Origin: Deltaproteobacteria bacterium
GTDB taxonomy: Bacteria > Myxococcota_A > UBA9160 > UBA4427
Direction: 5' to 3'
Length of the DNA stretch: 64,000 nt
Assembly: GCA_016713665.1 (NCBI GenBank)
Contig: JADJOR010000024.1
Location: 342,862 to 406,861, forward strand
Numbering within the stretch: position 1 is the first letter of the stretch; every line of letters begins with the position of its first letter. Below the pieces are notes generated by a model. It had not been told where the DNA came from, ran no database searches, and was given only the letters and a program-made list of their open reading frames with translations. This document shows, one piece after another, positions 7,485 to 55,418 of this stretch. Made by a program: the position numbers and the translations under genes.

Positions 7485-8795
7485 ATGTGGGAATTCGAGA
7501 CGGACGCCGACTATCAGAAGGATCTGGACTGGGCGGAAGCATTCGTCCGCGACGAGGTCGACCCGCTCAAGTACGTCCTGCCTCATGCCCTCGAGCGGAA
7601 ACATCCGATCTGGCAAGCGCTCGTTCCGCCGCTTCAGCGCGAGGTGCGCGCCCGAGGGCTCTGGGCCACTCATCTCGGACCCGACCTGGGCGGCCCGGGC
7701 CACGGTCAGGTCAAGCTCGCGCTCCTCAACGAGATCCTCGGTCGCACACCGATGGCCCCGATCGTCTTCGGCTGTCAGGCGCCCGATAGCGGCAACGCCG
7801 AGATCATCGCCCACTATGGGACGGCCGAGCACAAGGCGAAGTACCTCAAGCCCCTGCTCGCCGGCGAGATCTTCTCCTGCTTCTCGATGACCGAGCCCCA
7901 GGGTGGCTCCGATCCGAAGGAGTTCACCTGCTCCGCCGTCCTCGAAGGGGACGAGTGGGTCATCGAAGGCGAGAAGTGGTTCTCGTCGAACGCCCGTCAT
8001 TCGGAATTCTTCATCGTCATGGTGGTCACCGATCCGCAGAACCCGCCCTATCAACGACAGTCGATGATCATCGTTCCTGCCGACACGCCGGGAATCCGGA
8101 TCCTTCGCAACGTCGGCATCTCGTTCGGCGAAGGGACGGTCGGTCGCCCCGTCGAAGAGGGCGGCCATGCCTACATCCGCTACGAGAAGGTGCGGGTCCC
8201 GAAGTCCAACCTGCTCGGCGAGCGGGGCAAGGCCTTCGTCGTGGCGCAGACGCGTCTCGGCGGCGGACGGATCCATCACGCCATGCGGACGATCGGCATG
8301 GCGAAGCACGCGTTCGAGCTGATGCTCGAGCGGGCGGTGTCGCGCCGAACCCAGGGCGAGCTCCTCGCGAAGAAGCAGCTGGTCCAGGAGATGGTCGCCG
8401 ACTCCTGGATCGATCTCGAGCAGTTCCGGCTTCTCGTTCTGCGCACGGCCTGGCGGATCGATCGCTACAAGGACTACAAGCGGGTTCGAGGCGACATCTC
8501 TGCCGTGAAGGCCGCGATGCCGGGCGTGCTTCATCGCATCGCCTCGCGCGCGCTCCAGATCCACGGCTCGCTGGGCATCACCGACGAGATGCCGTTCATG
8601 GACATGATCTCCAACGCCTATCATCTCGGGCTGGCCGACGGCCCCACCGAGGTCCACAAGGTGACCCTCGCGAGCTCGCTCTTGCGCAACGTGAAGCCGG
8701 CCGAAGGCCTGTTCCCGAGCGGGCACGTGCCGGCAGCACGCGAGGCCGCCTTCGCAAAGTACGCAGAGGTCCTCGAGAAGGTGGGGCGTGACTGA
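7485..8795 (+). CDS. acyl-CoA dehydrogenase family protein
   Basis: 436-aa ORF with the SMTEPQGGSDP motif and ACAD-like C-terminal helical domain. GGAGGG lies upstream of ATG 7485. Confidence 0.9.
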   Translation: MWEFETDADYQKDLDWAEAFVRDEVDPLKYVLPHALERKHPIWQALVPPLQREVRARGLWATHLGPDLGGPGHGQVKLALLNEILGRTPMAPIVFGCQAPDSGNAEIIAHYGTAEHKAKYLKPLLAGEIFSCFSMTEPQGGSDPKEFTCSAVLEGDEWVIEGEKWFSSNARHSEFFIVMVVTDPQNPPYQRQSMIIVPADTPGIRILRNVGISFGEGTVGRPVEEGGHAYIRYEKVRVPKSNLLGERGKAFVVAQTRLGGGRIHHAMRTIGMAKHAFELMLERAVSRRTQGELLAKKQLVQEMVADSWIDLEQFRLLVLRTAWRIDRYKDYKRVRGDISAVKAAMPGVLHRIASRALQIHGSLGITDEMPFMDMISNAYHLGLADGPTEVHKVTLASSLLRNVKPAEGLFPSGHVPAAREAAFAKYAEVLEKVGRD

Positions 8796-20098: not shown

Positions 20099-20186
20099 GG
20101 AGAGATGGCCGAGCGGTCGAAGGCGCACGCTTGGAAAGCGTGTGTAGGGCAACCTACCGTGGGTTCGAATCCCACTCTCTCCGCCA
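20099..20186 (+). tRNA. tRNA-Ser (anticodon GGA), encoded CCA
   Basis: Folded by hand. Acceptor GGAGAGA/TCTCTCC; anticodon stem CACGC/GCGTG with loop TTGGAAA; long variable arm TGTAGGGCAACCTACCG; T-arm GTGGG-TTCGAAT-CCCAC; discriminator G then CCA. Confidence 0.9.
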
Positions 20187-20629: not shown

Positions 20630-21037
20630 GACCAGTCTTCGACGACGAATCCTTGAATCGACGAAAGTCCTTCAAATTAGCGGTCTCTAGGTTCAGCTAG
20701 TTGACGTGGCCAATCGCCGCGATTTGACCATCTGCGGCTGACGGGGGGCGTCCGCTCGTCGTCAGACGCGCCCGACCCTTAGCGTGCCAGGTCGCCGCCT
20801 CCTGGTCGAAGGGAAGGATCGGCAATGCACTTCGGACGCCTACTCGAGGTAGGCCTCGATTGCTCGTCGCTTCTTCGAAGCAGTCGGTCGAGCTACTCCA
20901 TACGACAGCTCATGCCAGACGACGGAGCAGGCGATTGCGCTCGCCATCATGCTCGGAGAGGTGTTCGAGTGTCCGCTCGTTCGGGTGCGACTTGATCGCC
21001 TCGGCGAGGACGTTCGTGTCTAGCGGGTATCGGACAT
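20630..21037 (-). pseudogene. PIN-domain (VapC-type) toxin, destroyed
   Basis: The ATG at 21037 overlaps the antitoxin stop. VapC-like segments lie in three frames: (MS)RYPLDTNVLAEAIKSHPNERTLEHLSEHDGE; IACSVVWHELSYGVARPTASKKRRAIEAYLE; ALPILPFDQEAATWHAKGRARLTTSGRPPSAADGQIAAIGHVN. An in-frame TAG follows at 20699..20697, then LNLETANLKDFRRFKD. The 3' limit is approximate. Confidence 0.6.
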
Positions 21038-21318
21038 CACAGCGAGATGTCTCGCCCTGGCGATTCATCTCGCAGGTCGTCGAAGTCCTTCTCTCCGATG
21101 CCGAGATCTTCGATGTACAGGCGATTTCGGAGCTGCCTGACTGCATCGGCGAAGGAGGAGCGTTTCCCAGTTATCGCGGCGTAGTCGGAGGCCGAGAGCA
21201 GCACAGCGACAGGCTCTCCCCGACGGGTGATCTCGATGACATTGCCGTGCTGGGCGCGCTTGATAAGGCGAGAGAGGTTCTGGCGGGCTTCGGCGACGGA
21301 AACCATCGTGGGAGCCAT
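21037..21318 (-). CDS. Phd/YefM-family antitoxin
   Basis: Intact 93-aa ORF. The N-terminus VSVAEARQNLSRLIKRAQHGNVIEITRRGEPVAVLLSASDY is typical of the family. Confidence 0.85.
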   Translation of the reverse strand: MAPTMVSVAEARQNLSRLIKRAQHGNVIEITRRGEPVAVLLSASDYAAITGKRSSFADAVRQLRNRLYIEDLGIGEKDFDDLRDESPGRDISL

Positions 21319-21332
21319 TCCTGAACCCTCTG

Positions 21333-21353
21333 AATGTACATCCTAATGTACAT
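21333..21353. promoter_or_regulatory. two copies of AATGTACAT (palindromic core ATGTACAT) 12 nt apart, candidate antitoxin operator
   Basis: Copies at 21333-21341 and 21345-21353, read directly, 15-35 nt upstream of the antitoxin ATG (21318). Confidence 0.45.
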
Positions 21354-21690: not shown

Positions 21691-22149
21691 GTGCTTCCGA
21701 AAGGGATCAGCGTGCCGGTTGTCATAGCGAATCTTAAGGCCGAGTCGTTCGCGGAGATCCAGCGCAAGGTGGGCTCAGGTCTATATTCGTCGGTCTCCGA
21801 GTTCGTGGAGCTAGCGATCGCCAATCAGATCGAACTCGAGAAGCACCGAGACGACGCTCCATGGGCGCCCATTCCGTCAAGGCCCGCGACCGAGCGACAG
21901 CGCGTACCGAAGACCACTGTGCCCCAACGACGCATGTTGGCCCGGCAGTCGCCGCCGGCGTCGATCATCACAGGTCCGTACGCCGCGGACGTGCTGACCC
22001 GGCTGAGGAAGGCCGTTGCCACCGAAGCCCCGACCAACCTGTCGCTGAAGCCGCCGCCGAAAGCGAACGATGAGGCGACGGTGTGGGGCCAGGTCAATCG
22101 ATTGCTCCCGCTAAGCTGGCACTTAGGTGGATTGCGGCGCATTCGCTAG
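21691..22149 (+). CDS. hypothetical DNA-binding protein (ribbon-helix-helix-like N-terminus); may be the 5' part of the next ORF
   Basis: 152-aa ORF. N-terminus ISVPVVIANLKAESFAEIQRKVGSGLYSSVSEFVELAIANQIELEK looks RHH/CopG-like. Its 3' end overlaps ORF 22083.. by 67 nt, which indicates either a -1 frameshift near 22108-22112 or a separate GTG start at 22083. Confidence 0.5.
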   Translation: MLPKGISVPVVIANLKAESFAEIQRKVGSGLYSSVSEFVELAIANQIELEKHRDDAPWAPIPSRPATERQRVPKTTVPQRRMLARQSPPASIITGPYAADVLTRLRKAVATEAPTNLSLKPPPKANDEATVWGQVNRLLPLSWHLGGLRRIR

Positions 22150-22821
22150 AGAAGTTGGATTGGCCGGGAATCGATGAGGCGCTCGAGCCATTGGCGTCCG
22201 ACGCGGCGACGATTGGCTCCGCGCTAGAGCAGGCCGACATCGCCGCCGGCCGAATGAGAGACGATCTTCTCGCGACGGCTTTACCCAAGCGCGGGAACGC
22301 GCTCTCCTCCGACCGCTTCATCAGTCAGTACGTCGCGCGTACAACGCGAAAAGGACTTGTCCATCCCGGCGCAGCCGTCCACTACGGACTACTGCTGCTG
22401 GATTCGGATAGGCTGGCGCTGACGACGACTGGATTCGAGTTTGCGGTAATGAAGAATCCAGTCCTCGACAGCGACATAGCCAACGCCAAAGACACGCTGA
22501 CCGACGAAGAGCGACGGTACTTCGTGTCGCATGCTATACTTCACCTGCCTAGCGAGTTGTATGATTTCCGATTCACTTTGGAAATCGTGGGGTCGGGCCG
22601 CGACACCCCGGCCGACCAAATTGCGCAAGCTCGCGACCACCTCCCGAGTGAGTGGTCCGACGATGATCAGGACCCATGTAACGGGGGTCGTCGCTCGGAT
22701 GATCGATCTCGGCCTCCTCCGCCGCCGGTGGCAGGGACGCCATGTCAGATACGAGATAACGGATCTGGCCGCCGGGTTTGCGGCCCCTCACGCCAAGCAC
22801 GGAGAGCCCCATGCAGGATAG
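22083..22821 (+). pseudogene. hypothetical protein with C-terminal winged-helix-like domain; needs a frame switch near 22655-22665
   Basis: Frame-0 ORF 22083..22832 turns into Pro/Arg junk after ...DHLPSEWSDD. The wHTH-like continuation (M)IRTHVTGVVARMIDLGLLRRRWQGRHVRYEITDLAAGF is in frame 1 (ORF 22531..22821). That stop overlaps the next gene start by 11 nt. Confidence 0.5.
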
Positions 22822-25110
22822 CGATCTTCTGAATGACCTCCTAAACGCGGACAGCGAGGATGGCGCGATTGCCGCCCTCGATAGCCGCGGTCTCTTGGGC
22901 GACATGAGCCGTTGGAGGTATCTTGGCAACACACCTAATAACCAGTCGGTGGTGAACAACCAGCAGAGCACGGCGATGGCGGCTCTGGTAGAGAAGTACA
23001 CCAACGGCGTCGACGCCCTTCTACTGCGCCACTGCAAGGCTGCAGGAGTTGATCCGCGCGGCCACTCCGCGCCCGATTGTATGGACGAGGCGGTAAGCCG
23101 ATTTTTTGGCGATCTCGCGAGTCTCAGCGACGCGGACCGCCGCGCGTTCTCCGAGGACAACCTCCTTCTCTACGCGACGGGCTCTAAGGCGCGTCCATGT
23201 ATCTCGATGTACGACAACGGCGAGGGTCAGCTTCCCGAAAACTTCCCGAAGACGTTCTGTTCCCTCATCTCGGGATCCGACGAGGTTCTTACAAGGGGGC
23301 GATTAATTTTGTTCAGGGTCGCTTTAACATGGGTGGGACGGGCGTTCTTCCGTTCTGTGGCGAGAAGCGCAAGATTCAGCTCATCGTTAGCCGCGCTCCC
23401 GACGACGTCGTCGGAACGAAGGGTCACGAGTGGGCTTACACGATCATCTGTTTCTTCCCGTCGGCCAAAGATCCGTCCTGGCGCTACATGGTCGGACCGG
23501 ACGGGCAGGTGCTCACCGCCGGCTCTGGCCCCCTGAAGCTCGTGCCTCTCAAGGCGGTCAAATCAGGTGTCATCTGCAAGCCTCTCGAGCGCGCGGTTCC
23601 GAGCGGCACGCTTGTAAAGATGTACGACTTCAAGGCACCCCGTAGCAATGTGTGCGGCGAGCTGTACAAAAAGCTCGGCGAGTATCTGATCCAGCCGGCG
23701 ATTCCGTTGCGCATCATCGAATGCCGCAAGGACTATCAGGCCAATGTCATGGGAGTGACACTATGGGATCGGCTTGGCGCGTTGCTCAAGAACAATGAAC
23801 TAGAAGACGAGTGCAGAGACGGGATCGGCGTGACGGTCGAGCTGTCGACCGGTGAACAGGTTCCCGCTGAGGTAAGGGTATTCAGGCTTTCGACGAAGAA
23901 GAAGGGCGAGGACGTCGACGAGTTTCGCGTCGGACTCCGTGCTCTCATCAACGGACAGAGTCACGCTAAACGCGGCCCTGAGTTCGTGCGAGCCAAGGGG
24001 GTAGGGCTTGAGCACATCGCGGGCAGTATGCTGGTAACGCTCGACTGCACCCGATTGTGTCAGCAGTCGCGAAACGATCTTTTTATGGCGAACCGAGAGA
24101 CATTTCGCAGTGAATCGGCGCTCTGTGAAGAGCTCTTCAAGGAGTTGAAGGAGCAGCTGAGGGGCCACGATGCGCTGAAGTACCTGAATCACAAGCGGTA
24201 CGAGGAGAAGGTTAAGACCGCCGTGGATGACGAAGACGGTATCAAAGCGATGGAGGACCTTCTCGCAGAGGATCCCGAGCTCGCCGAGCTGTTTGGCGGT
24301 AAGGAATCGGGCGCGACGTCCTCCCACGCACCGACCGCGGGAGGCAGCCTGCCCGCGAAGCCGGAGCAGTTCAAAGGGGCTCAATTCCCCTCGTTCTTCC
24401 GTCGAGCTGACGGATCGACGTCGGTGGAGATGGAAGTGCCTCGTGGCGGTATTGCGCGAGTCGCATTCCACACTGACGTCCGCAACAACTATTTCACACG
24501 AAAGACCAATAGAGGCACCTGCAAGTTCAAGGGAGACTTCGCGCCGTCGCATCATCTCTATAACGGCCGACTAACGTTAGCTTGTCGTCCGCCGGCCACG
24601 GCCGTGGTAGGCACGCAGCTCGCGACCGAGGCGACGATTACGGACCCCAAGGGCTCGGGGCCGTTCACACTGATGCTAGCGGCGTCGGTCGTCGCACCTA
24701 AGCACAAAAAGCAGCCGGATCCGCGCGAGAAGAAAGAGAAGAAGTCGAAGCGGGGGCCTAGCCGTCCGCGGATCCGCGAGCGCGACGGGGATCCGACTGA
24801 GCCGCCGATCGAGATCAATCGTGAGCCCAAAACGAACCTCCTCGAAATCATTATTAACAGGAAGGCAGCGGCGCTGGAACACGCGAAGGCGAAGCGCCCT
24901 TCTGCGGAGGAGGCCGCGGTCGAGTTTGTGTTCAAGTATGGCCTCGCACTGCTCGCTATGTCGATGATCGATCGTGCGCGCGAGACTGAAAAGTGGGATG
25001 AAGACGAGCCGGATTGCCGAAAGGAAATCGGACAGACCGTGTCCGACCTTTCGCGAGTGATCGTGCCGCTTTGCCTCAATCTGCCCCAAAAGCTTCCTAA
25101 GGCGGGCTAG
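22811..25110 (+). pseudogene. GHKL (Bergerat-fold, MORC/HATPase_c_3-like) ATPase, ~766 aa if one frameshift at ~23282-23286 is repaired
   Basis: ATG 22811 follows GGAGAG. The N-box EKYTNGVDA and G1 box YDNGEG lie in frame 2 (ORF 22778..23536). The G2 box GRFNMGGTG and the remaining 600+ codons lie in frame 1 (ORF 23197..25110). One extra G in GACGAG|GTTCT would give ...SGSDEGSYKGAINFVQGRFNMGGTG.... This could be a sequencing error rather than a true pseudogene. Confidence 0.7.
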
Positions 25111-26309
25111 CGGAGGCGGTGAATCAGGAGGTACTCGGTGGCTGCGTCGACGTCGCCCTGTAGCTTCGCGTACCACTTGCGATTTGCGACGCGCCGCTCG
25201 ATGCGATCGTCGTGCAGGTCAGAACTTCGCACCTCATAGAAGCCCGCCTGTTCCATGGCTGTTAGGTACAGGGGTAGCTGTTCAGCGACTCTTGAGAACC
25301 CAACGATCTGGACCACGGTGCCATCGCGGTGCAATACGCGCGCAACGGAACTGAATGCGCTCACGATCATTTCAAAATAATTGCGGATGCCGGTGGGCGT
25401 GCGGCTTCCTCCACAATAGTAGGATAAGCCCGCACCGTCGGTCCTATTCGCGATCCAGTAGGGCGCGGGTGTCTCGCGTCGTCCCCGATATTGCCACCGA
25501 TGGTAAAGGACGTGGACGCCAGGGTAGGGAGGCGATGTGAATACGAGGCGAGGTTTGCTTCGCAGCGATCTGATCCGGCTATCACGATCGATGCCAGCCG
25601 CCGAGCGGTGCAAGAGCATCCGGTGTCCGGTGATCGCATTCTTTGAAATCCCGGACTCCCTGCAACTAGCGACGAACTCGCGCAGGCCGAGAATCATGTC
25701 GTCGACGTACGCTGGTAGCCGCTCGGCGAGGCGAGACCGTCGCGGCGCTGAGAAGTCCCGGCAGTCGAGCGCCCACTGGCCGAGCCGGAGAAGCGCTGCC
25801 CTGGCGAAGGCGCGTCGCCTTGGGAGCATGTCTGCTGCTAGCTGCAACGCACCGGCCATGAACAGCTCGGTTGCTCTCGGCAGATTTCGAATTCCGGCTA
25901 GCTCGACCCAAGAAAGATCTGGGTCCACAAGCCGAACGGCTGCTCGATCTGCCCAGCGGCGGACGCTGTCCTCGTCGGCGGGCGATAGCGGTTGCGTACG
26001 GACATCGCTGACGAAGTGCGCGAGGGAGTTGATGTCAATACCAACCATCCGGCGCCCGAGCGTCAACCCTTCGACGATGCTCGTGCCCCCGCCCATGAAT
26101 GGATCGAGCACCCAACTCCCTCGTCGGGAGAACGCTGAGATCACGTCTCGCGCAACCTCGGGGTGAAATCGAGCGGGATAGCTGTAGAAGCTATGGGTTC
26201 CACCGGCCGAGTTCGTGTAGGCCGTCGTCGACAGCGACTCTGAGAGAACGCGGATCGTATCTCCACTGAGTCGAGACTCGGCGTGGGCGTCTGTGGTTAT
26301 CCACGGCAT
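25107..26309 (-). CDS. DNA methyltransferase (N6-adenine/N4-cytosine type; motif I before motif IV)
   Basis: Intact 400-aa ORF. AdoMet motif VLDPFMGGGTS near residue 70 and catalytic LVFTSPPYPG near residue 258. Convergent with the GHKL gene, overlapping it at the stop codons. Confidence 0.85.
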   Translation of the reverse strand: MPWITTDAHAESRLSGDTIRVLSESLSTTAYTNSAGGTHSFYSYPARFHPEVARDVISAFSRRGSWVLDPFMGGGTSIVEGLTLGRRMVGIDINSLAHFVSDVRTQPLSPADEDSVRRWADRAAVRLVDPDLSWVELAGIRNLPRATELFMAGALQLAADMLPRRRAFARAALLRLGQWALDCRDFSAPRRSRLAERLPAYVDDMILGLREFVASCRESGISKNAITGHRMLLHRSAAGIDRDSRIRSLRSKPRLVFTSPPYPGVHVLYHRWQYRGRRETPAPYWIANRTDGAGLSYYCGGSRTPTGIRNYFEMIVSAFSSVARVLHRDGTVVQIVGFSRVAEQLPLYLTAMEQAGFYEVRSSDLHDDRIERRVANRKWYAKLQGDVDAATEYLLIHRLR

Positions 26310-26712: not shown

Positions 26713-28371
26713 TCAACCAACGTTGACCTTGATTAGGCTGCGATGATCAATCCAGTTAAGTGGTAGGCGGGGCGCTCGTCTCAGCATTTCGGTGGTGAGA
26801 TTGCTTGGCTGCGAGCCAGCAACGATCTGAGCAACGACCTCGGGAGCCAGGAACGCGAGCGGCATCAGTTGCCCTATGTACCGGTCGCTGATCGCTTCAG
26901 CTTTGGCGATCTCGAGGAGCGAGCTGGATCGACCAGACGAGAGGTCGTCGAACCAGACTCGAGCTCGAGAAATTGCCTTGATGAGCACGGAGTCCACTGG
27001 CAAATCGCTGACCCAAGATCCGTCCTCCGCGATCACCAGTCGAACCTCATTCCCCCGCTTCCTCATCTCGAACGGAATCGCGTGCCGAAGCGAGGCGTCG
27101 AGGTCCTTCATCAACTCGGAGAGCCCCACCTCGATTATGAGCTGGCCCTTGTCGAGATCCACCCGCCTGATGGATCGAAGCAGATCGCGATCGCACCGTT
27201 GCGCGCGGCTGAGTAGCTCCGGAAGAAGGTTCTCTTTGACTTTGGCCGCGCGTGCTAGCCGAGCGAGGTGTAAGGAATTCGCGAAGAGAGACCGAACCGA
27301 CTTCTCGACCGTCTTCTCGATCTCATGCGCCGAAAGTCGCCACCGCGGACCGCTGCGTTCGCCCTCGTTGTCTCCGGCCGTCTGAAGATCCCGAGAGACG
27401 TAGTACCGATACCGCTTTCCGCCCTTGATCGTGGAGGTCGGCACCAGCGGAACCCCCTTCTCGTCAAAGAGTCTCCCCATGAGCGGATGTTGCATCGTTG
27501 TTCGGGTTGATGTCCGCCGTGCCGGCGCCTGGCTCGCCATCTGCTTCTGGACCGCGTCCCAGGTCTCCAGGTCAATGATCGCCGGATGCTGCCCCTCATA
27601 GCTCTCCGCCTTGTGCGGAATCCGCCCGATGTAGACCGGATTGCTAAGCAGGTGATAGAGCGCCCCCCGACTGAAGGACCGCCCACCCGCGATTCGGTTG
27701 TGCTTCCCCGGTCTCGCCTTCGACCGAATCCTTCTCCGATCCGCCGCCTCTTTGAGCGCGCGCACGCTGCCCAGCTCGAGATACATCCGAAAGATCTCCC
27801 GAACCGTATTCGCCTCCGACTCGACGATCTTCAGCGTCCGCCCCTCCGCCTCGTACCCCAGCGGCACGAGCCCACCCATCCAGAGTCCCTTCCGCTTCGA
27901 GGCCGCGATCTTGTCCCGGATCCGCTCCCCCGTGACCTCCCGCTCGAACTGAGCAAACGAGAGCAGCATGTTGAGCGTGAGCCGCCCCATCGAGGTCGTC
28001 GTGTTGAACTGCTGGGTGACCGAGACGAACGAGACCTGCTGCGCATCGAGGACGTCGACGATCTTCGCGAAGTCGGAGAGCGAACGCGTCAGCCGATCGA
28101 CCTTGTAGACGACGACCGTTTGGACGCGCCCTTGCTCGATGTCATCGAGGAGCCGCTTCAGGGCAGGTCTCTCCATCGTGCCCCCGGAGTACCCGCCGTC
28201 GTTGTAGCCGGTCTCGACGAGCTTCCAGCCCTCGCTCTTCTGGCTCCGGATGTAGGCCTCGCACGCCTCCCGCTGCGCGTCGAGCGAGTTGAAATCCTGC
28301 TCGAGTCCCTCCTCGGAGGACTTCCTCGTGTAGATCGCGCAGCGCCGCGTTCGCGTCTCAGGCTTGGCCAC
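26713..28371 (-). CDS. large serine recombinase
   Basis: 552 aa. Resolvase catalytic N-terminus CAIYTRKSSEEGLEQDFNSLDAQ...VVVYKVDRLTRS, followed by a recombinase domain. Confidence 0.9.
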   Translation of the reverse strand: MAKPETRTRRCAIYTRKSSEEGLEQDFNSLDAQREACEAYIRSQKSEGWKLVETGYNDGGYSGGTMERPALKRLLDDIEQGRVQTVVVYKVDRLTRSLSDFAKIVDVLDAQQVSFVSVTQQFNTTTSMGRLTLNMLLSFAQFEREVTGERIRDKIAASKRKGLWMGGLVPLGYEAEGRTLKIVESEANTVREIFRMYLELGSVRALKEAADRRRIRSKARPGKHNRIAGGRSFSRGALYHLLSNPVYIGRIPHKAESYEGQHPAIIDLETWDAVQKQMASQAPARRTSTRTTMQHPLMGRLFDEKGVPLVPTSTIKGGKRYRYYVSRDLQTAGDNEGERSGPRWRLSAHEIEKTVEKSVRSLFANSLHLARLARAAKVKENLLPELLSRAQRCDRDLLRSIRRVDLDKGQLIIEVGLSELMKDLDASLRHAIPFEMRKRGNEVRLVIAEDGSWVSDLPVDSVLIKAISRARVWFDDLSSGRSSSLLEIAKAEAISDRYIGQLMPLAFLAPEVVAQIVAGSQPSNLTTEMLRRAPRLPLNWIDHRSLIKVNVG

Positions 28372-37113: not shown

Positions 37114-38255
37114 TCGGCAACCCCCAGCAGCATCGCACCGCCGTATGGCCCTGCACCGGCAGTCACGAGGGCGACCTCGGCCCCTTCGACCTGCCGCTCG
37201 CCGGCGTCACCACGGAGCTGGAGAACTGCCTCGAAGGTGTGATTGAGTCCGTGGATGTAACCCTCCGAAAGGAGGCCGCCGTGTGGATTGACTACAACGT
37301 CGCCGCCGTACGTACCCCGACCGCTGCGGAGGAAGTCGCCGACCTCACCCCGTTCGCAGAAGCCGAACTCCTCGAGCGTGACCATGACGGTGTAGGTGAA
37401 GCAGTCGTACATGCACGCCACGTCGACATCCGCGGGCCGCAAGCCGCTCCGGTCCCAGAGCGCCGGCGCGACCTCTTTCGAGTACATCGTCGTCAGGTCA
37501 GGCCATCGCTCCCAGGAGCCGCCCGCCCCCGTGAACTCCGCGTGTGCGTGAAGGCCGACCGGCGGTCGGCGCAGATCCGCGGCCCGCTCCGCGGTCGCGA
37601 GGACGAGCGCGACGGCGCCGTCGATCTCGAGCGCGCAGTCGTAGAGCCTGAGCGGCTCGTTGATCCATCGGGCCGCGAGGTAGTCGTCGATCGTAATCGG
37701 GTCGCGCTGAACGGCGTGTTCATTCGCCACAGCGTGCCGCCGTTGGGTGACCGCGATCGCACCGAGATCCTCGCAGGTGCTCCCGTAGACCTGTTGGTGC
37801 TCCCGCGCCCACATCGCCATCCATTGCGGCGGCGTCATGTAGCCCTGGGGCGCGGTGAACTGAAGCGCCCCACCGACCTCGTGCACGCCGTCCGCGCGAC
37901 CGAAGCGACGACCACTTCGTCCATTGAGCGAGCGGTAGACGATTGCCGTGTCGCACAGTCCGCACTCGATCGCCATCGCAGCGTTTGTAACGACACTCGA
38001 GGCGTAGTTGCCACCGCCCATCAGGTCAATGTTCCAACGCAGCCCGGGCGACCCGATCGCGTCGGCGACCGCCATGGGACTCGCCGAGTCCGCCGCCTGA
38101 TAGGTAGCGGCGCCGTCGACCTGAGTGGCATCGAGTCCGGCGTCCGCGAGCGCCTCACGTGCCGCTTCGGCGGCCATCGCAAGAGTCGTGCGACCCGACC
38201 GCCGGCCGTAAGCGGTTCGACCGATGCCGACAATGACAGGCGTTCGTTGCTTCAT
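37110..38255 (-). CDS. thiolase-fold protein, SCP-x / lipid-transfer (Ltp) type
   Basis: 381 aa. N-terminal VIVGIGRTAYGRR and C-terminal NPHGGLLSEGYIHGLNH. Paired with DUF35. Confidence 0.9.
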   Translation of the reverse strand: MKQRTPVIVGIGRTAYGRRSGRTTLAMAAEAAREALADAGLDATQVDGAATYQAADSASPMAVADAIGSPGLRWNIDLMGGGNYASSVVTNAAMAIECGLCDTAIVYRSLNGRSGRRFGRADGVHEVGGALQFTAPQGYMTPPQWMAMWAREHQQVYGSTCEDLGAIAVTQRRHAVANEHAVQRDPITIDDYLAARWINEPLRLYDCALEIDGAVALVLATAERAADLRRPPVGLHAHAEFTGAGGSWERWPDLTTMYSKEVAPALWDRSGLRPADVDVACMYDCFTYTVMVTLEEFGFCERGEVGDFLRSGRGTYGGDVVVNPHGGLLSEGYIHGLNHTFEAVLQLRGDAGERQVEGAEVALVTAGAGPYGGAMLLGVAE

Positions 38256-38306
38256 CCCTGAGCCCTCCTCACCTCACTCGCGCTCCGGCAGAAGACCGGA
38301 GTGGAT

Positions 38307-41333: not shown

Positions 41334-42596
41334 ATGAGCACTGCCCAATCCCTGGACCAGGTCGAGCTGATCGACGCGGTGCACTACGCGGAGCACGGCT
41401 ATCCGCACGAGGCGTTCCGACTGCTCCGACGAGAAGCCCCGGTCTACTACTTCGATCGGTTGTCGCTTCGCCCCTTCTGGGCGATCACGCGCCACAGCGA
41501 CATCGTCGAGATCTCGCGACGCCCGGACCTGTACCTGAACGCGCCGCGCCTGGTCGTCGGCGCGGATGCGCTCACTGGCGAGTCAGGTGCGCTGCCGGTC
41601 CGGATGCTGCTCAACATCGATCCGCCTGATCACAGCGCGTATCGAGCGCTGGTGAACAAGCGATTCACCCCTCGCGCACTCCGGGACATCGCGCGCCGGA
41701 TCGACGCAATCGCGTCCCGCGCGCTCGACGACATGCTCGCATGCGGCGAGGAATCCGAGGTCGACTTCGTCCGCGAGTTCTCTGCGAAGATCCCGATTTG
41801 GGTGATCGCGGAGATGCTTGGGGTTCCGGAGCAGGACTGGGAGCTGCTCTTCGACTGGACCAATCGCGTCCTCGGGGCGGCGGATCCCGAATACCGGGAA
41901 GAAGGCAAGTCGCCGCAAGAGACATTGCAGACCGCCCGACTGGCCCTCTTCTCCTACTTTCAGGACCTGACCGAGGAGCGGCGAAGTCGCCCCAAGGACG
42001 ATCTGGTCAGCGTCTTGACGCACTCGCAGATCCGCGGGGAGGCACTGCCCGTCTTCGAGTTGATGTCGTACTATTTTCTGATCGTCGTCGCGGGAAACGA
42101 GACGACGCGAAACGCCGCGAGCGGCGGCCTACTGGCCCTGATCGAGAACCCGGACCAGCTCGAGCTCGCGCGGAGAAGACCCGATCTCAACCGATCGCTC
42201 GTCGAGGAGGTTCTTCGCTGGACGTCGCCCGTGATCCATTTCTGCCGAACGCCGGTTCGAGACGTCACGATTCACGGGCAGACGATTCGAGCAGGAGAGA
42301 CGCTGACTCTCTTCTACCCCTCGGCCAATCGCGACGAGTTCGTCTTCGATGACGCCGACCGATTCAAGATCGACCGGCAACCGAATCGGCACATCGCGTT
42401 CGGAATCGGAGAGCACGTCTGCCTGGGCGCCCACGTGGCGCGCTTCGAGTTGCAGGTCATCTTTCGACACCTGCTCGCTCGGCTCGTCGACGTGGAGCTC
42501 GCGGGGCCGGTCGAGCGGCTTCGCTCGAGCATCGTCGGCGGAATCAAGCACATGCCGATACGATACCGCCTGCTCCCTTCCGCGGATGCAGCCTGA
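41334..42596 (+). CDS. cytochrome P450
   Basis: FGIGEHVCLGAHVA heme loop, ExxR (VEEVLRW) and AGNETT I-helix. Confidence 0.9.
   Translation: MSTAQSLDQVELIDAVHYAEHGYPHEAFRLLRREAPVYYFDRLSLRPFWAITRHSDIVEISRRPDLYLNAPRLVVGADALTGESGALPVRMLLNIDPPDHSAYRALVNKRFTPRALRDIARRIDAIASRALDDMLACGEESEVDFVREFSAKIPIWVIAEMLGVPEQDWELLFDWTNRVLGAADPEYREEGKSPQETLQTARLALFSYFQDLTEERRSRPKDDLVSVLTHSQIRGEALPVFELMSYYFLIVVAGNETTRNAASGGLLALIENPDQLELARRRPDLNRSLVEEVLRWTSPVIHFCRTPVRDVTIHGQTIRAGETLTLFYPSANRDEFVFDDADRFKIDRQPNRHIAFGIGEHVCLGAHVARFELQVIFRHLLARLVDVELAGPVERLRSSIVGGIKHMPIRYRLLPSADAA

Positions 42597-54887: not shown

Positions 54888-55418
<531 letters not shown>

Follow-up and report, generated by a model that had tools for sequence, protein, structure and literature searches.

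A conserved cassette of a GHKL-type ATPase and a convergent SPPY methyltransferase as a candidate restriction-modification-like module on a mobile island

Within a stretch of 64,000 nucleotides (nt) from the Deltaproteobacteria bacterium contig JADJOR010000024.1 (assembly GCA_016713665.1; the whole stretch is called the window here), positions 21691-26309 hold a compact cassette of three genes, which encode a putative DNA-binding protein, a large ATPase of the GHKL type and, converging on the latter, an amino-methyltransferase. The cassette is real, conserved and uncharacterised, and it represents a new family and a new architecture in a class that had been predicted before, the GHKL-associated modification systems. 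With moderate confidence, it is regarded as an unnamed and widespread restriction-modification (R-M)-like module on a mobile island, in which methylation would mark self and the GHKL protein would be a clamp-forming effector. An earlier note, made from the letters of the window, had outlined the cassette, and the positions, motif strings, 11-nt gene overlap and other features that it listed for 21691-26309 are all present. The genes and their motifs are:

21691-22821, plus strand: upstream accessory gene, ~377 amino acids (aa) after repair, read in frames 1, 0, 1
22811-25110, plus strand: gene of the GHKL-type ATPase, 766 aa after repair of one frame break
22991-23017, 23210-23227 and 23317-23343, plus strand: ATPase motifs EKYTNGVDA, YDNGEG and GRFNMGGTG, respectively
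25107-26309, minus strand: gene of the amino-methyltransferase, 400 aa, intact; Pfam N6_N4_Mtase (PF01555) with 56.8 bits against a cut-off of 26.7 bits (4e-15)
26079-26099, minus strand: N-terminal S-adenosylmethionine (AdoMet) motif I of the methyltransferase, FMGGGTS
25524-25538, minus strand: catalytic motif of the methyltransferase, TSPPY, ~190 residues after motif I

The ATPase family is large. It comprises 1955 representatives at E<=1e-3 among clusters formed at 50% identity, of which 658 lie below 1e-30, and at least 590 loci are present in collections holding one genome per species. These belong to many bacterial phyla and some archaea; the hundreds of host species are members of Acidobacteriota, Proteobacteria, Chloroflexota, Planctomycetota, Firmicutes and archaea. 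The same methyltransferase family adjoins the ATPase in 44 non-redundant metagenomic or genomic loci (hmmsearch E 1e-92 to 1e-206), nearly always tail-to-tail and with gaps of -137 to +109 nt. The exceptions are loci L003 and L006, with a divergent methyltransferase upstream, and L010-L012 and L064, where it lies upstream on the same strand; here the methyltransferase is relocated and yet adjacent, thus the adjacency survives rearrangement. An adjacent methyltransferase was seen in 18 of 18 evaluable genome loci of the close family and in ~26 of ~57 evaluable distant loci (~30% identity). Many unrelated genomes share this combination of genes, so the arrangement is not due to chance. The co-occurrence of the three genes, to which the earlier note had tied its proposal, therefore stands, whereas the upstream gene turned out not to be a constant partner, its slot being variable. 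Clustering of the neighbours of 88 loci revealed no conserved helicase or nuclease gene beside the ATPase. Homologues of the ATPase were absent from phage records and occur in six plasmid records, all annotated as 'hypothetical protein'.

The repaired ATPase aligns from end to end with more than 500 intact proteins of ~767 aa (100% coverage, 55-67% identity). Neither its fragments nor the repaired protein match any model of Pfam, PADLOC or NCBIfam, PHROGs likewise yielded no match for the ATPase, and a profile of 48 homologues found nothing among the PDB sequences. The Pfam family HATPase_c_3 is reached by only three of 60 distant relatives, with 4e-5 as the best value. A hit of the repaired open reading frame (ORF) to a GHKL-family hidden Markov model, without which the earlier note would have given up its assignment, was thus not obtained in Pfam, PADLOC or NCBIfam, so annotation based on these three libraries misses the ATPase.

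This absence is overridden by the evidence from the fold. An AlphaFold2 (AF2) model of the homologue P0003, which is 67% identical, has a pLDDT of 77 and was compared by Foldseek with the PDB. It matches Hsp90, GRP94, TRAP1, the 43-kDa fragment of GyrB and Topo VI-B with E-values of 4e-9 to 6e-7, a probability of 1.0 and ~400-480 aligned columns, and in BFVD it also matches viral Hsp90 and topoisomerase models. The GHKL domain and a transducer domain (ribosomal S5 domain 2-like) occupy approximately residues 1-470, followed by a helical region. E61xxxN65xxD68, D135xGxG, the lid glycines G171-G176-G179 as well as K163, K271, Q382 and R428 are conserved in both sets compared, 48 close sequences and 60 at ~30% identity; apart from E61 and G179 (at least 90% in the 60 sequences) these residues are invariant, and E61 is invariant in the 48 close sequences. 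By predicted fold and by motifs, and not by a family model, the 766-aa protein is a GHKL ATPase with a transducer domain, for which ATP hydrolysis is predicted. The GHKL call made earlier therefore holds, on structure and catalytic motifs only, and the addition 'MORC-like' finds no specific support, as the solved folds closest to it are those of Hsp90, GyrB and Topo VI-B and not of MORC or MutL. In MutL, MORC, Hsp90 and GyrB, the module of GHKL and transducer domain works as an ATP-gated dimeric clamp.

The C-terminal half of the protein is built differently. After the transducer, helices are followed by a seven-stranded all-beta domain, a disordered linker rich in Lys and Arg, and three strands with further helices:

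~24420-24695, plus strand: all-beta domain of the ATPase (~residues 538-628), delimited in the AF2 model of P0003
24700-24771, plus strand: Lys/Arg-rich disordered linker of the ATPase
after the linker, plus strand: small conserved C-terminal alpha/beta-plus-helical domain of the ATPase, acidic

Numerous matches in the viral structure library, 105-130 residues long, are to domains of the Ig-like, PKD and lectin types (probability ~1, TM ~0.45-0.54). These matches were placed on the all-beta domain, though the search gives no query ranges, and the domain is therefore only putatively Ig-like. T555, D556, N559, R564, D612, N683, D685 and N686 are nearly invariant across 60 divergent sequences, and this polar and acidic set points to a strong constraint on the C-terminal region. 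Pfam, PADLOC, NCBIfam, the PDB profile search and Foldseek against PDB and BFVD with the full-length homologue model recognised no nuclease family or fold in the ATPase, and Pfam gave no match to DUF4263 or a PD-(D/E)xK domain in the ATPase or 60 relatives.

The methyltransferase, whose stop codon overlaps that of the ATPase by 4 nt, is confirmed as an intact enzyme by its Pfam match; in PADLOC only the generic MTase_II models respond to it. The order of its parts is permuted, with motif I first, then a variable middle region and TSPPY last. The middle region shows a mean pairwise identity of 27% and is presumed to be the target-recognition domain, while TSPPYPGVHV is essentially invariant in the 44 partner methyltransferases. 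The SPPY signature correlates with N4-cytosine methylation (m4C rather than N6-methyladenine, m6A), and this signature by itself suggests that the enzyme would produce N4-methylcytosine. A mirror-tree test for a specificity domain, in which segments of the ATPase were correlated with segments of the methylase, gave weak values and was uninformative.

Taken together as an R-M-like module, the cassette would work in the following way. The permuted SPPY methyltransferase would mark the host DNA, and the GHKL protein, as the effector, would clamp unmarked incoming DNA as an ATP-gated dimer. Its C-terminal half would supply the contact to the DNA and, in addition, a catalytic site that has escaped recognition or else a block that involves no nucleolysis, whereas the upstream protein with its ribbon-helix-helix (RHH) and double winged-helix parts would act as a controller or adaptor. 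We infer the role in defence from this arrangement of genes and from their surroundings.

Several observations weigh against such a module. In none of the three proteins was a nuclease, helicase or other effector domain recognised by libraries, PDB profile or Foldseek. Many distant relatives of the ATPase have no adjacent methyltransferase, including a Nitrospirota group that lies amid ORFs of housekeeping-like appearance, as judged from their sequence; its pairing is thus not obligatory, and the ATPase is not obviously lethal by itself. Furthermore, the divergences of ATPase and methyltransferase are weakly correlated (Spearman ~0.3-0.4), and the domains of the C-terminal half were delimited in a single AF2 model, whose linkers have low confidence.

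Alternatively, the GHKL protein would help modification or regulation instead of restriction, either by loading or activating the methyltransferase in an ATP-driven manner, as the AAA+ proteins MtsA/MtsB do for MtsC in MANTIS, or as part of an epigenetic switch together with the upstream protein. Such ATP-dependent loading of a methyltransferase has a precedent (bioRxiv 10.64898/2026.09.23.753747), a nuclease was not found in the searches, conservation is higher in the ATPase than in its partners, and ATPase genes without a methylase are viable. However, the convergent and separately transcribed layout is typical of R and M genes, and the methyltransferase is a complete stand-alone enzyme that has its own variable recognition region. 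In addition, the family members that occur without it argue for an independent function of the ATPase, and in the window it is the methylase that stays intact. A helper function is considered unlikely.

The surroundings of the family are those of mobile and defence elements, since its loci lie near serine recombinase, integrase, ArdC, type I R-M, DUF262 and SIR2 genes. Also the distant relatives without a methylase are often placed beside defence genes, such as type I R-M in Virgibacillus or DUF262 and a BREX-like ATPase in Halanaerobium. Three distant relatives (~30% identity; L043, L089 and L090) lie beside Ssp-like genes of the phosphorothioation type and not beside a methylase, and this fits the pairing of one effector with interchangeable DNA-marking modules.

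Two of these three loci are on plasmids, L089 on Devosia neptuniae plasmid NZ_CP104964.1 and L090 on Hymenobacter plasmid NZ_CP110137.1. The genes concerned encode a protein of the 3'-phosphoadenosine 5'-phosphosulfate (PAPS) reductase family, DUF4007 and a class-V aminotransferase (cysteine-desulfurase-like). The Hymenobacter locus additionally has SIR2 and DUF262 genes, and in L043 a second GHKL-like gene is located directly upstream.

A more far-reaching proposal would make the ~767-aa GHKL protein a new class of restriction effector that does without a conventional nuclease. As a clamp gated by ATP, it would recognise unmarked DNA and neutralise it either via an unseen catalytic centre formed by T555/D556/N559/R564/D612/N683/D685/N686 or by MORC-like trapping and compaction, and it would be modular, using N4-cytosine methylation in most loci and Ssp-type phosphorothioation in others. 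This proposal is put forward tentatively and is rather unlikely as a whole.

A further idea is a methyl-directed, MutL-like module for DNA repair or recombination, in which the GHKL protein would couple the methylation mark to strand discrimination or lesion processing. MutL shares the GHKL-plus-transducer architecture, some distant members are found amid apparently housekeeping-type ORFs, and an occasional recruitment of such proteins outside R-M has been reported by Iyer et al. (PMC2292703). However, neither the C-terminal endonuclease/dimerisation domain of MutL nor a MutS, MutH or UvrD partner was found, and the patchy, island-borne distribution across phyla as well as the defence genes neighbouring family members speak against it, so that this explanation appears highly improbable.

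The upstream gene is the least constant part of the cassette. Searches by tblastn with intact homologues of 365-370 aa and a three-frame translation revealed a single gene at 21691-22821; the 'gene(s)' of the earlier note, an RHH-like ORF and an ORF with a winged-helix-like end, are therefore one gene and not two. The protein begins with the RHH-like segment VPVVIANLKAESFAEIQRKV (21712-21771), which is followed by a disordered linker, a helical core containing WGQVNRLLP(L)KLALRW and two winged-helix units, the C-terminal one at 22678-22764. In an AF2 model of the homologue P0121 (pLDDT 89), the N-terminus is RHH-like, the linker is disordered and the helical body holds two winged helices, and Foldseek yields local winged-helix matches only (ArsR/SmtB, MecI, MarR, TubR). 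RHH_8 responds weakly in two of 55 family members, and a family profile against PDB sequences gives a marginal hint of the MarR type and nothing more. The RHH and winged-helix parts proposed earlier are therefore weakly supported.

In Pfam, PADLOC, NCBIfam and PHROGs the upstream protein has no match, and no nuclease fold was recognised in it by family libraries, PDB profile search or Foldseek; together with the searches on the ATPase, this agrees with the earlier statement that the cassette holds no recognisable nuclease. Just 54 relatives are detectable, far more divergent than the ATPase family and unnamed save for two generic regulator labels of the Joint Genome Institute (JGI; ArsR family and Arc/MetJ ribbon-helix-helix). 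The ATG of the ATPase gene overlaps the stop of the upstream gene by 11 nt, which predicts that the two are translationally coupled. Most likely, the protein acts as a controller or adaptor in the manner of the C-proteins of R-M systems.

Across the family, the slot directly upstream of the ATPase is filled in different ways: by the RHH-winged-helix protein in ~17 loci, by a pair of a MazE-type antitoxin and a PIN protein in 15, by a helical protein of 75-110 aa in 14, by proteins of 201-222 aa in five, by an HTH_17 protein in three and by a PC4-like protein in one locus. This variability indicates that the core consists of ATPase and methylase, and that the upstream gene behaves as an exchangeable controller or adaptor. 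The MazE/AbrB-type antitoxin and PIN toxin genes are on the strand of the ATPase (L025, L030-L033, L037, L039, L046-L048, L054, L060, L073, L082 and L086), and the pair may either belong functionally to the system or hitch-hike with it as a toxin-antitoxin module. The helical protein of 75-110 aa (L015, L017, L027, L071 and 10 other loci) carries the motif REKFVxLAExRTxxAxxxIRxIGNLSN…YEY and matches nothing in Pfam or PHROGs.

In the window, the cassette is part of an island, whose left boundary is a tRNA gene behind which the GC content falls from ~0.72 to ~0.60, as judged from the composition of the window. The order of genes from there is the Phd/YefM antitoxin gene, the cassette and the recombinase gene:

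20099-20186, plus strand: tRNA-Ser(GGA), left boundary of the island
21037-21318, minus strand: Phd/YefM antitoxin gene, intact (Pfam 1.6e-15)
26713-28371, minus strand: large serine recombinase gene (Pfam Resolvase 4e-40 and Recombinase 2e-16), mobile-element context outside the cassette proper

A second copy of the 3' end of tRNA-Ser(GGA), which would delimit the island, was searched for within the 64-kb window and not found. Downstream of the intact Phd/YefM gene, a VapC/PIN-type toxin gene (~20697-21040) is a pseudogene with two frameshifts and an in-frame stop (…IAAIGHVN*LNLETANLKDF…).

These neighbours also suggest a selfish addiction or toxin-antitoxin-like module, in which ATPase and upstream protein would be the toxin, methylation the antidote that stabilises the island, and an anti-phage role would not be primary. 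The cassette adjoins another toxin-antitoxin pair and a recombinase, in the window the presumed toxic partners (VapC, the ATPase operon) are broken and the presumed antidotes (Phd/YefM, the methylase) are intact, and in 15 loci a MazE-PIN pair takes the upstream slot. However, ATPase genes exist without a methylase, and as the sole explanation such a module seems quite improbable. It is also not really exclusive of the R-M-like reading, because type II R-M systems behave likewise.

The state of the window copy itself is judged to be close to evenly balanced between a genuine pseudogene, with an orphan methylase left after recent inactivation, and a mis-assembled sequence. Both non-methylase genes of the cassette carry frame breaks of the 1-nt type:

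22108-22112 (~22110), plus strand: break 1 of the upstream gene, AAA shortened to AA by a 1-nt deletion in the A run
22656-22666 (~22661), plus strand: break 2 of the upstream gene, within gacgatGatcagg (+1 or -2 nt), immediately 3' of TCCGACGA
23276-23288 (at 23284-23286), plus strand: break of the ATPase gene, GAGGGT shortened to GAGGT by a 1-nt deletion in the G run, immediately 3' of a second TCCGACGA

At break 1, one A is absent from ccgctaAAgctgg (ctaAAgctgg), and its addition restores WGQVNRLLPLKLALRW, the consensus of the family. In the ATPase gene, 'gacgaGGttc' is one G short, and the repair restores SDEGSYKG, fitting the family consensus GSxDGSYKG. All three sites had been placed correctly before, as judged by tblastn with intact homologues and by the consensus regained on repair.

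Several findings are on the side of an artefact. All three breaks are indels of the 1-nt type, two of them in short homopolymers, and of 160 residues found invariant in the other 48 sequences the repaired ATPase retains 159, which is as good as in intact members with their 0-5 private changes. Among the genome loci, four other copies of the ATPase gene are frame-broken (L024, L026, L061 and L083), all of them in long-read assemblies; with assembly classes assigned from the record titles, ~4 of 24 long-read and 0 of ~56 short-read assemblies hold a broken copy (hypergeometric p ~0.007). Two of the three breaks in the window lie 2-8 nt 3' of the octamer TCCGACGA (22656-22663 and 23276-23283), which occurs nine times in the 64 kb, the number expected by chance. 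The long-read metagenome-assembled genome L024 has a 1-nt deletion (~8095-8110) that is 7 nt away from the ATPase break of the window, in the same TCCGACGAGGG context; it lies within the octamer, where the ATPase genes correspond in position. The breaks linked to TCCGACGA could result from a context-specific base-calling error, perhaps at a modified motif, or from a mutational hotspot. Moreover, the same window holds a poly-C tract of 531 nt.

On the side of genuine decay, the other assignable copies of TCCGACGA sit in ORFs that look intact, for example in the P450 gene at 41334-42596. The breaks are confined to the two non-methylase genes, whereas the adjoining methylase and recombinase are intact. 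The broken VapC-type gene beside the intact Phd/YefM gene shows the same pattern of a lost toxic partner and a kept antidote.

Some further features of the window lie outside the cassette. The poly-C tract at 54888-55418 is 94% pure, and its kilobase has a GC content of 0.79 and a GC skew of -0.52; it almost certainly arose as an artefact of assembly or sequencing, and it warns about the quality of the contig. The cytochrome P450-like gene at 41334-42596 (plus strand) is intact, belongs to the low-GC island and contains …FGIGEHVCLGAHVA…. A second TSPPY peptide of the island, at 37297-37311 (plus strand) inside the ORF 37239-38261, may indicate another amino-methyltransferase. The palindrome ATGTACAT is present twice at 21334-21353, just upstream of the Phd/YefM antitoxin gene, and may be the operator of the antitoxin. 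Scans for promoters, terminators and operators around the cassette gave no signal above chance.

If the cassette is a working defence system, it would be among the more abundant unnamed methylation-based systems, occurring in hundreds of species. It would then offer a tractable model of two or three genes for the role of bacterial GHKL/MORC-type ATPases in the discrimination of self and non-self, a question that has been standing since the prediction of 2008 and that bears on the origin of eukaryotic MORC silencing, and it would show whether restriction works without a classical nuclease. A family model for the ATPase would improve the annotation of SPPY methylases that look like orphans. The copy in the window is of limited value itself, and the intact homologues represent the worthwhile material, among them the cassettes of L001 (6752-11296), Polaromonas sp. 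L018 and Sphingopyxis flava R11H L071.

The cassette fits none of the systems in PADLOC-DB 2.0 (2023; the one defence library used, covering BREX, DISARM, Hma, Mza, Shedu and others), in line with the earlier note, which could give it no name. For the ATPase and the upstream protein there are zero system-specific matches in this library, and 60 relatives yield one marginal match, PDC-S35 at 0.0056. The ATPase family and its make-up without helicase and nuclease were also not found in Pfam, NCBIfam or the literature searched. CapK/CapS, Shedu I-D/VcSduA, Ambrosia, MANTIS, BREX, Hma and Mza were rejected by their domain content or by PADLOC models.

With BREX, MANTIS/Gao_RL and Ambrosia, the cassette has in common the marking of self by a methyltransferase together with ATPases, and BREX is also without a known nuclease. 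It differs in that PglZ/BrxC/BrxL, AAA+ proteins, a helicase-nuclease, a receiver domain and HNH are all missing. Ambrosia combines MTase, HATPase, REC and HNH, with an N6 methylase accompanying the HATPase protein (bioRxiv 10.1101/2025.09.30.679545). That HATPase is a sensor of the histidine-kinase type, whereas the cassette protein is predicted to be a GHKL-plus-transducer ATPase. In CapK-CapS (a helix-turn-helix (HTH)-STAS-GHKL kinase and a STAS-winged-helix repressor; PMC13373217), a GHKL protein and a winged-helix DNA-binding protein are likewise found near immune genes. However, CapK is a small kinase of the SpoIIAB type with STAS partners, while the cassette has no STAS domain and its GHKL protein carries a transducer and matches Hsp90 and GyrB.

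The Shedu type I-D protein VcSduA (paraMORC3, GHKL and DUF4263 PD-(D/E)xK), in which the GHKL domain controls a nuclease (PMC12137116), also begins with an N-terminal GHKL domain and continues with a middle domain that resembles a clamp, both being thought to control a C-terminal effector. In contrast, DUF4263/PD-(D/E)xK was not detected in the cassette ATPase, and Shedu has no methyltransferase partner. The type II and type III R-M systems resemble the cassette in the tail-to-tail placement of methyltransferase and partner, the optional C-protein-like upstream gene, the location on islands and the methylase that outlasts its broken partners. Here the difference is the partner, which has no recognisable nuclease fold and whose motor would be of the GHKL type, in place of the superfamily 2 (SF2) helicase of type III Res or of no motor at all in type II.

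The general idea of such a cassette goes back to the MORC/paraMORC R-M operons, in which GHKL/MORC ATPases have been predicted (Iyer, Abhiman and Aravind, 2008; PMC2292703). The cassette deviates from them, since it has neither an SF2 helicase nor an HNH, RE, Vsr or HKD nuclease partner, which are consistent themes of those operons. Its ATPase is invisible to HATPase_c_3 and all other models, the solved folds nearest to it are those of Hsp90, GyrB and Topo VI-B, and its C-terminal half consists of an all-beta domain (putatively Ig-like), a basic linker and a small acidic domain. On the other hand, the three of 60 distant relatives that touch the same Pfam model, HATPase_c_3, provide a weak transitive link, and both kinds of loci place a gene for an ATPase with GHKL and transducer-type domains beside that for a DNA methylase within mobile islands, and the role proposed is that of an ATP-driven, DNA-manipulating partner in R-M.

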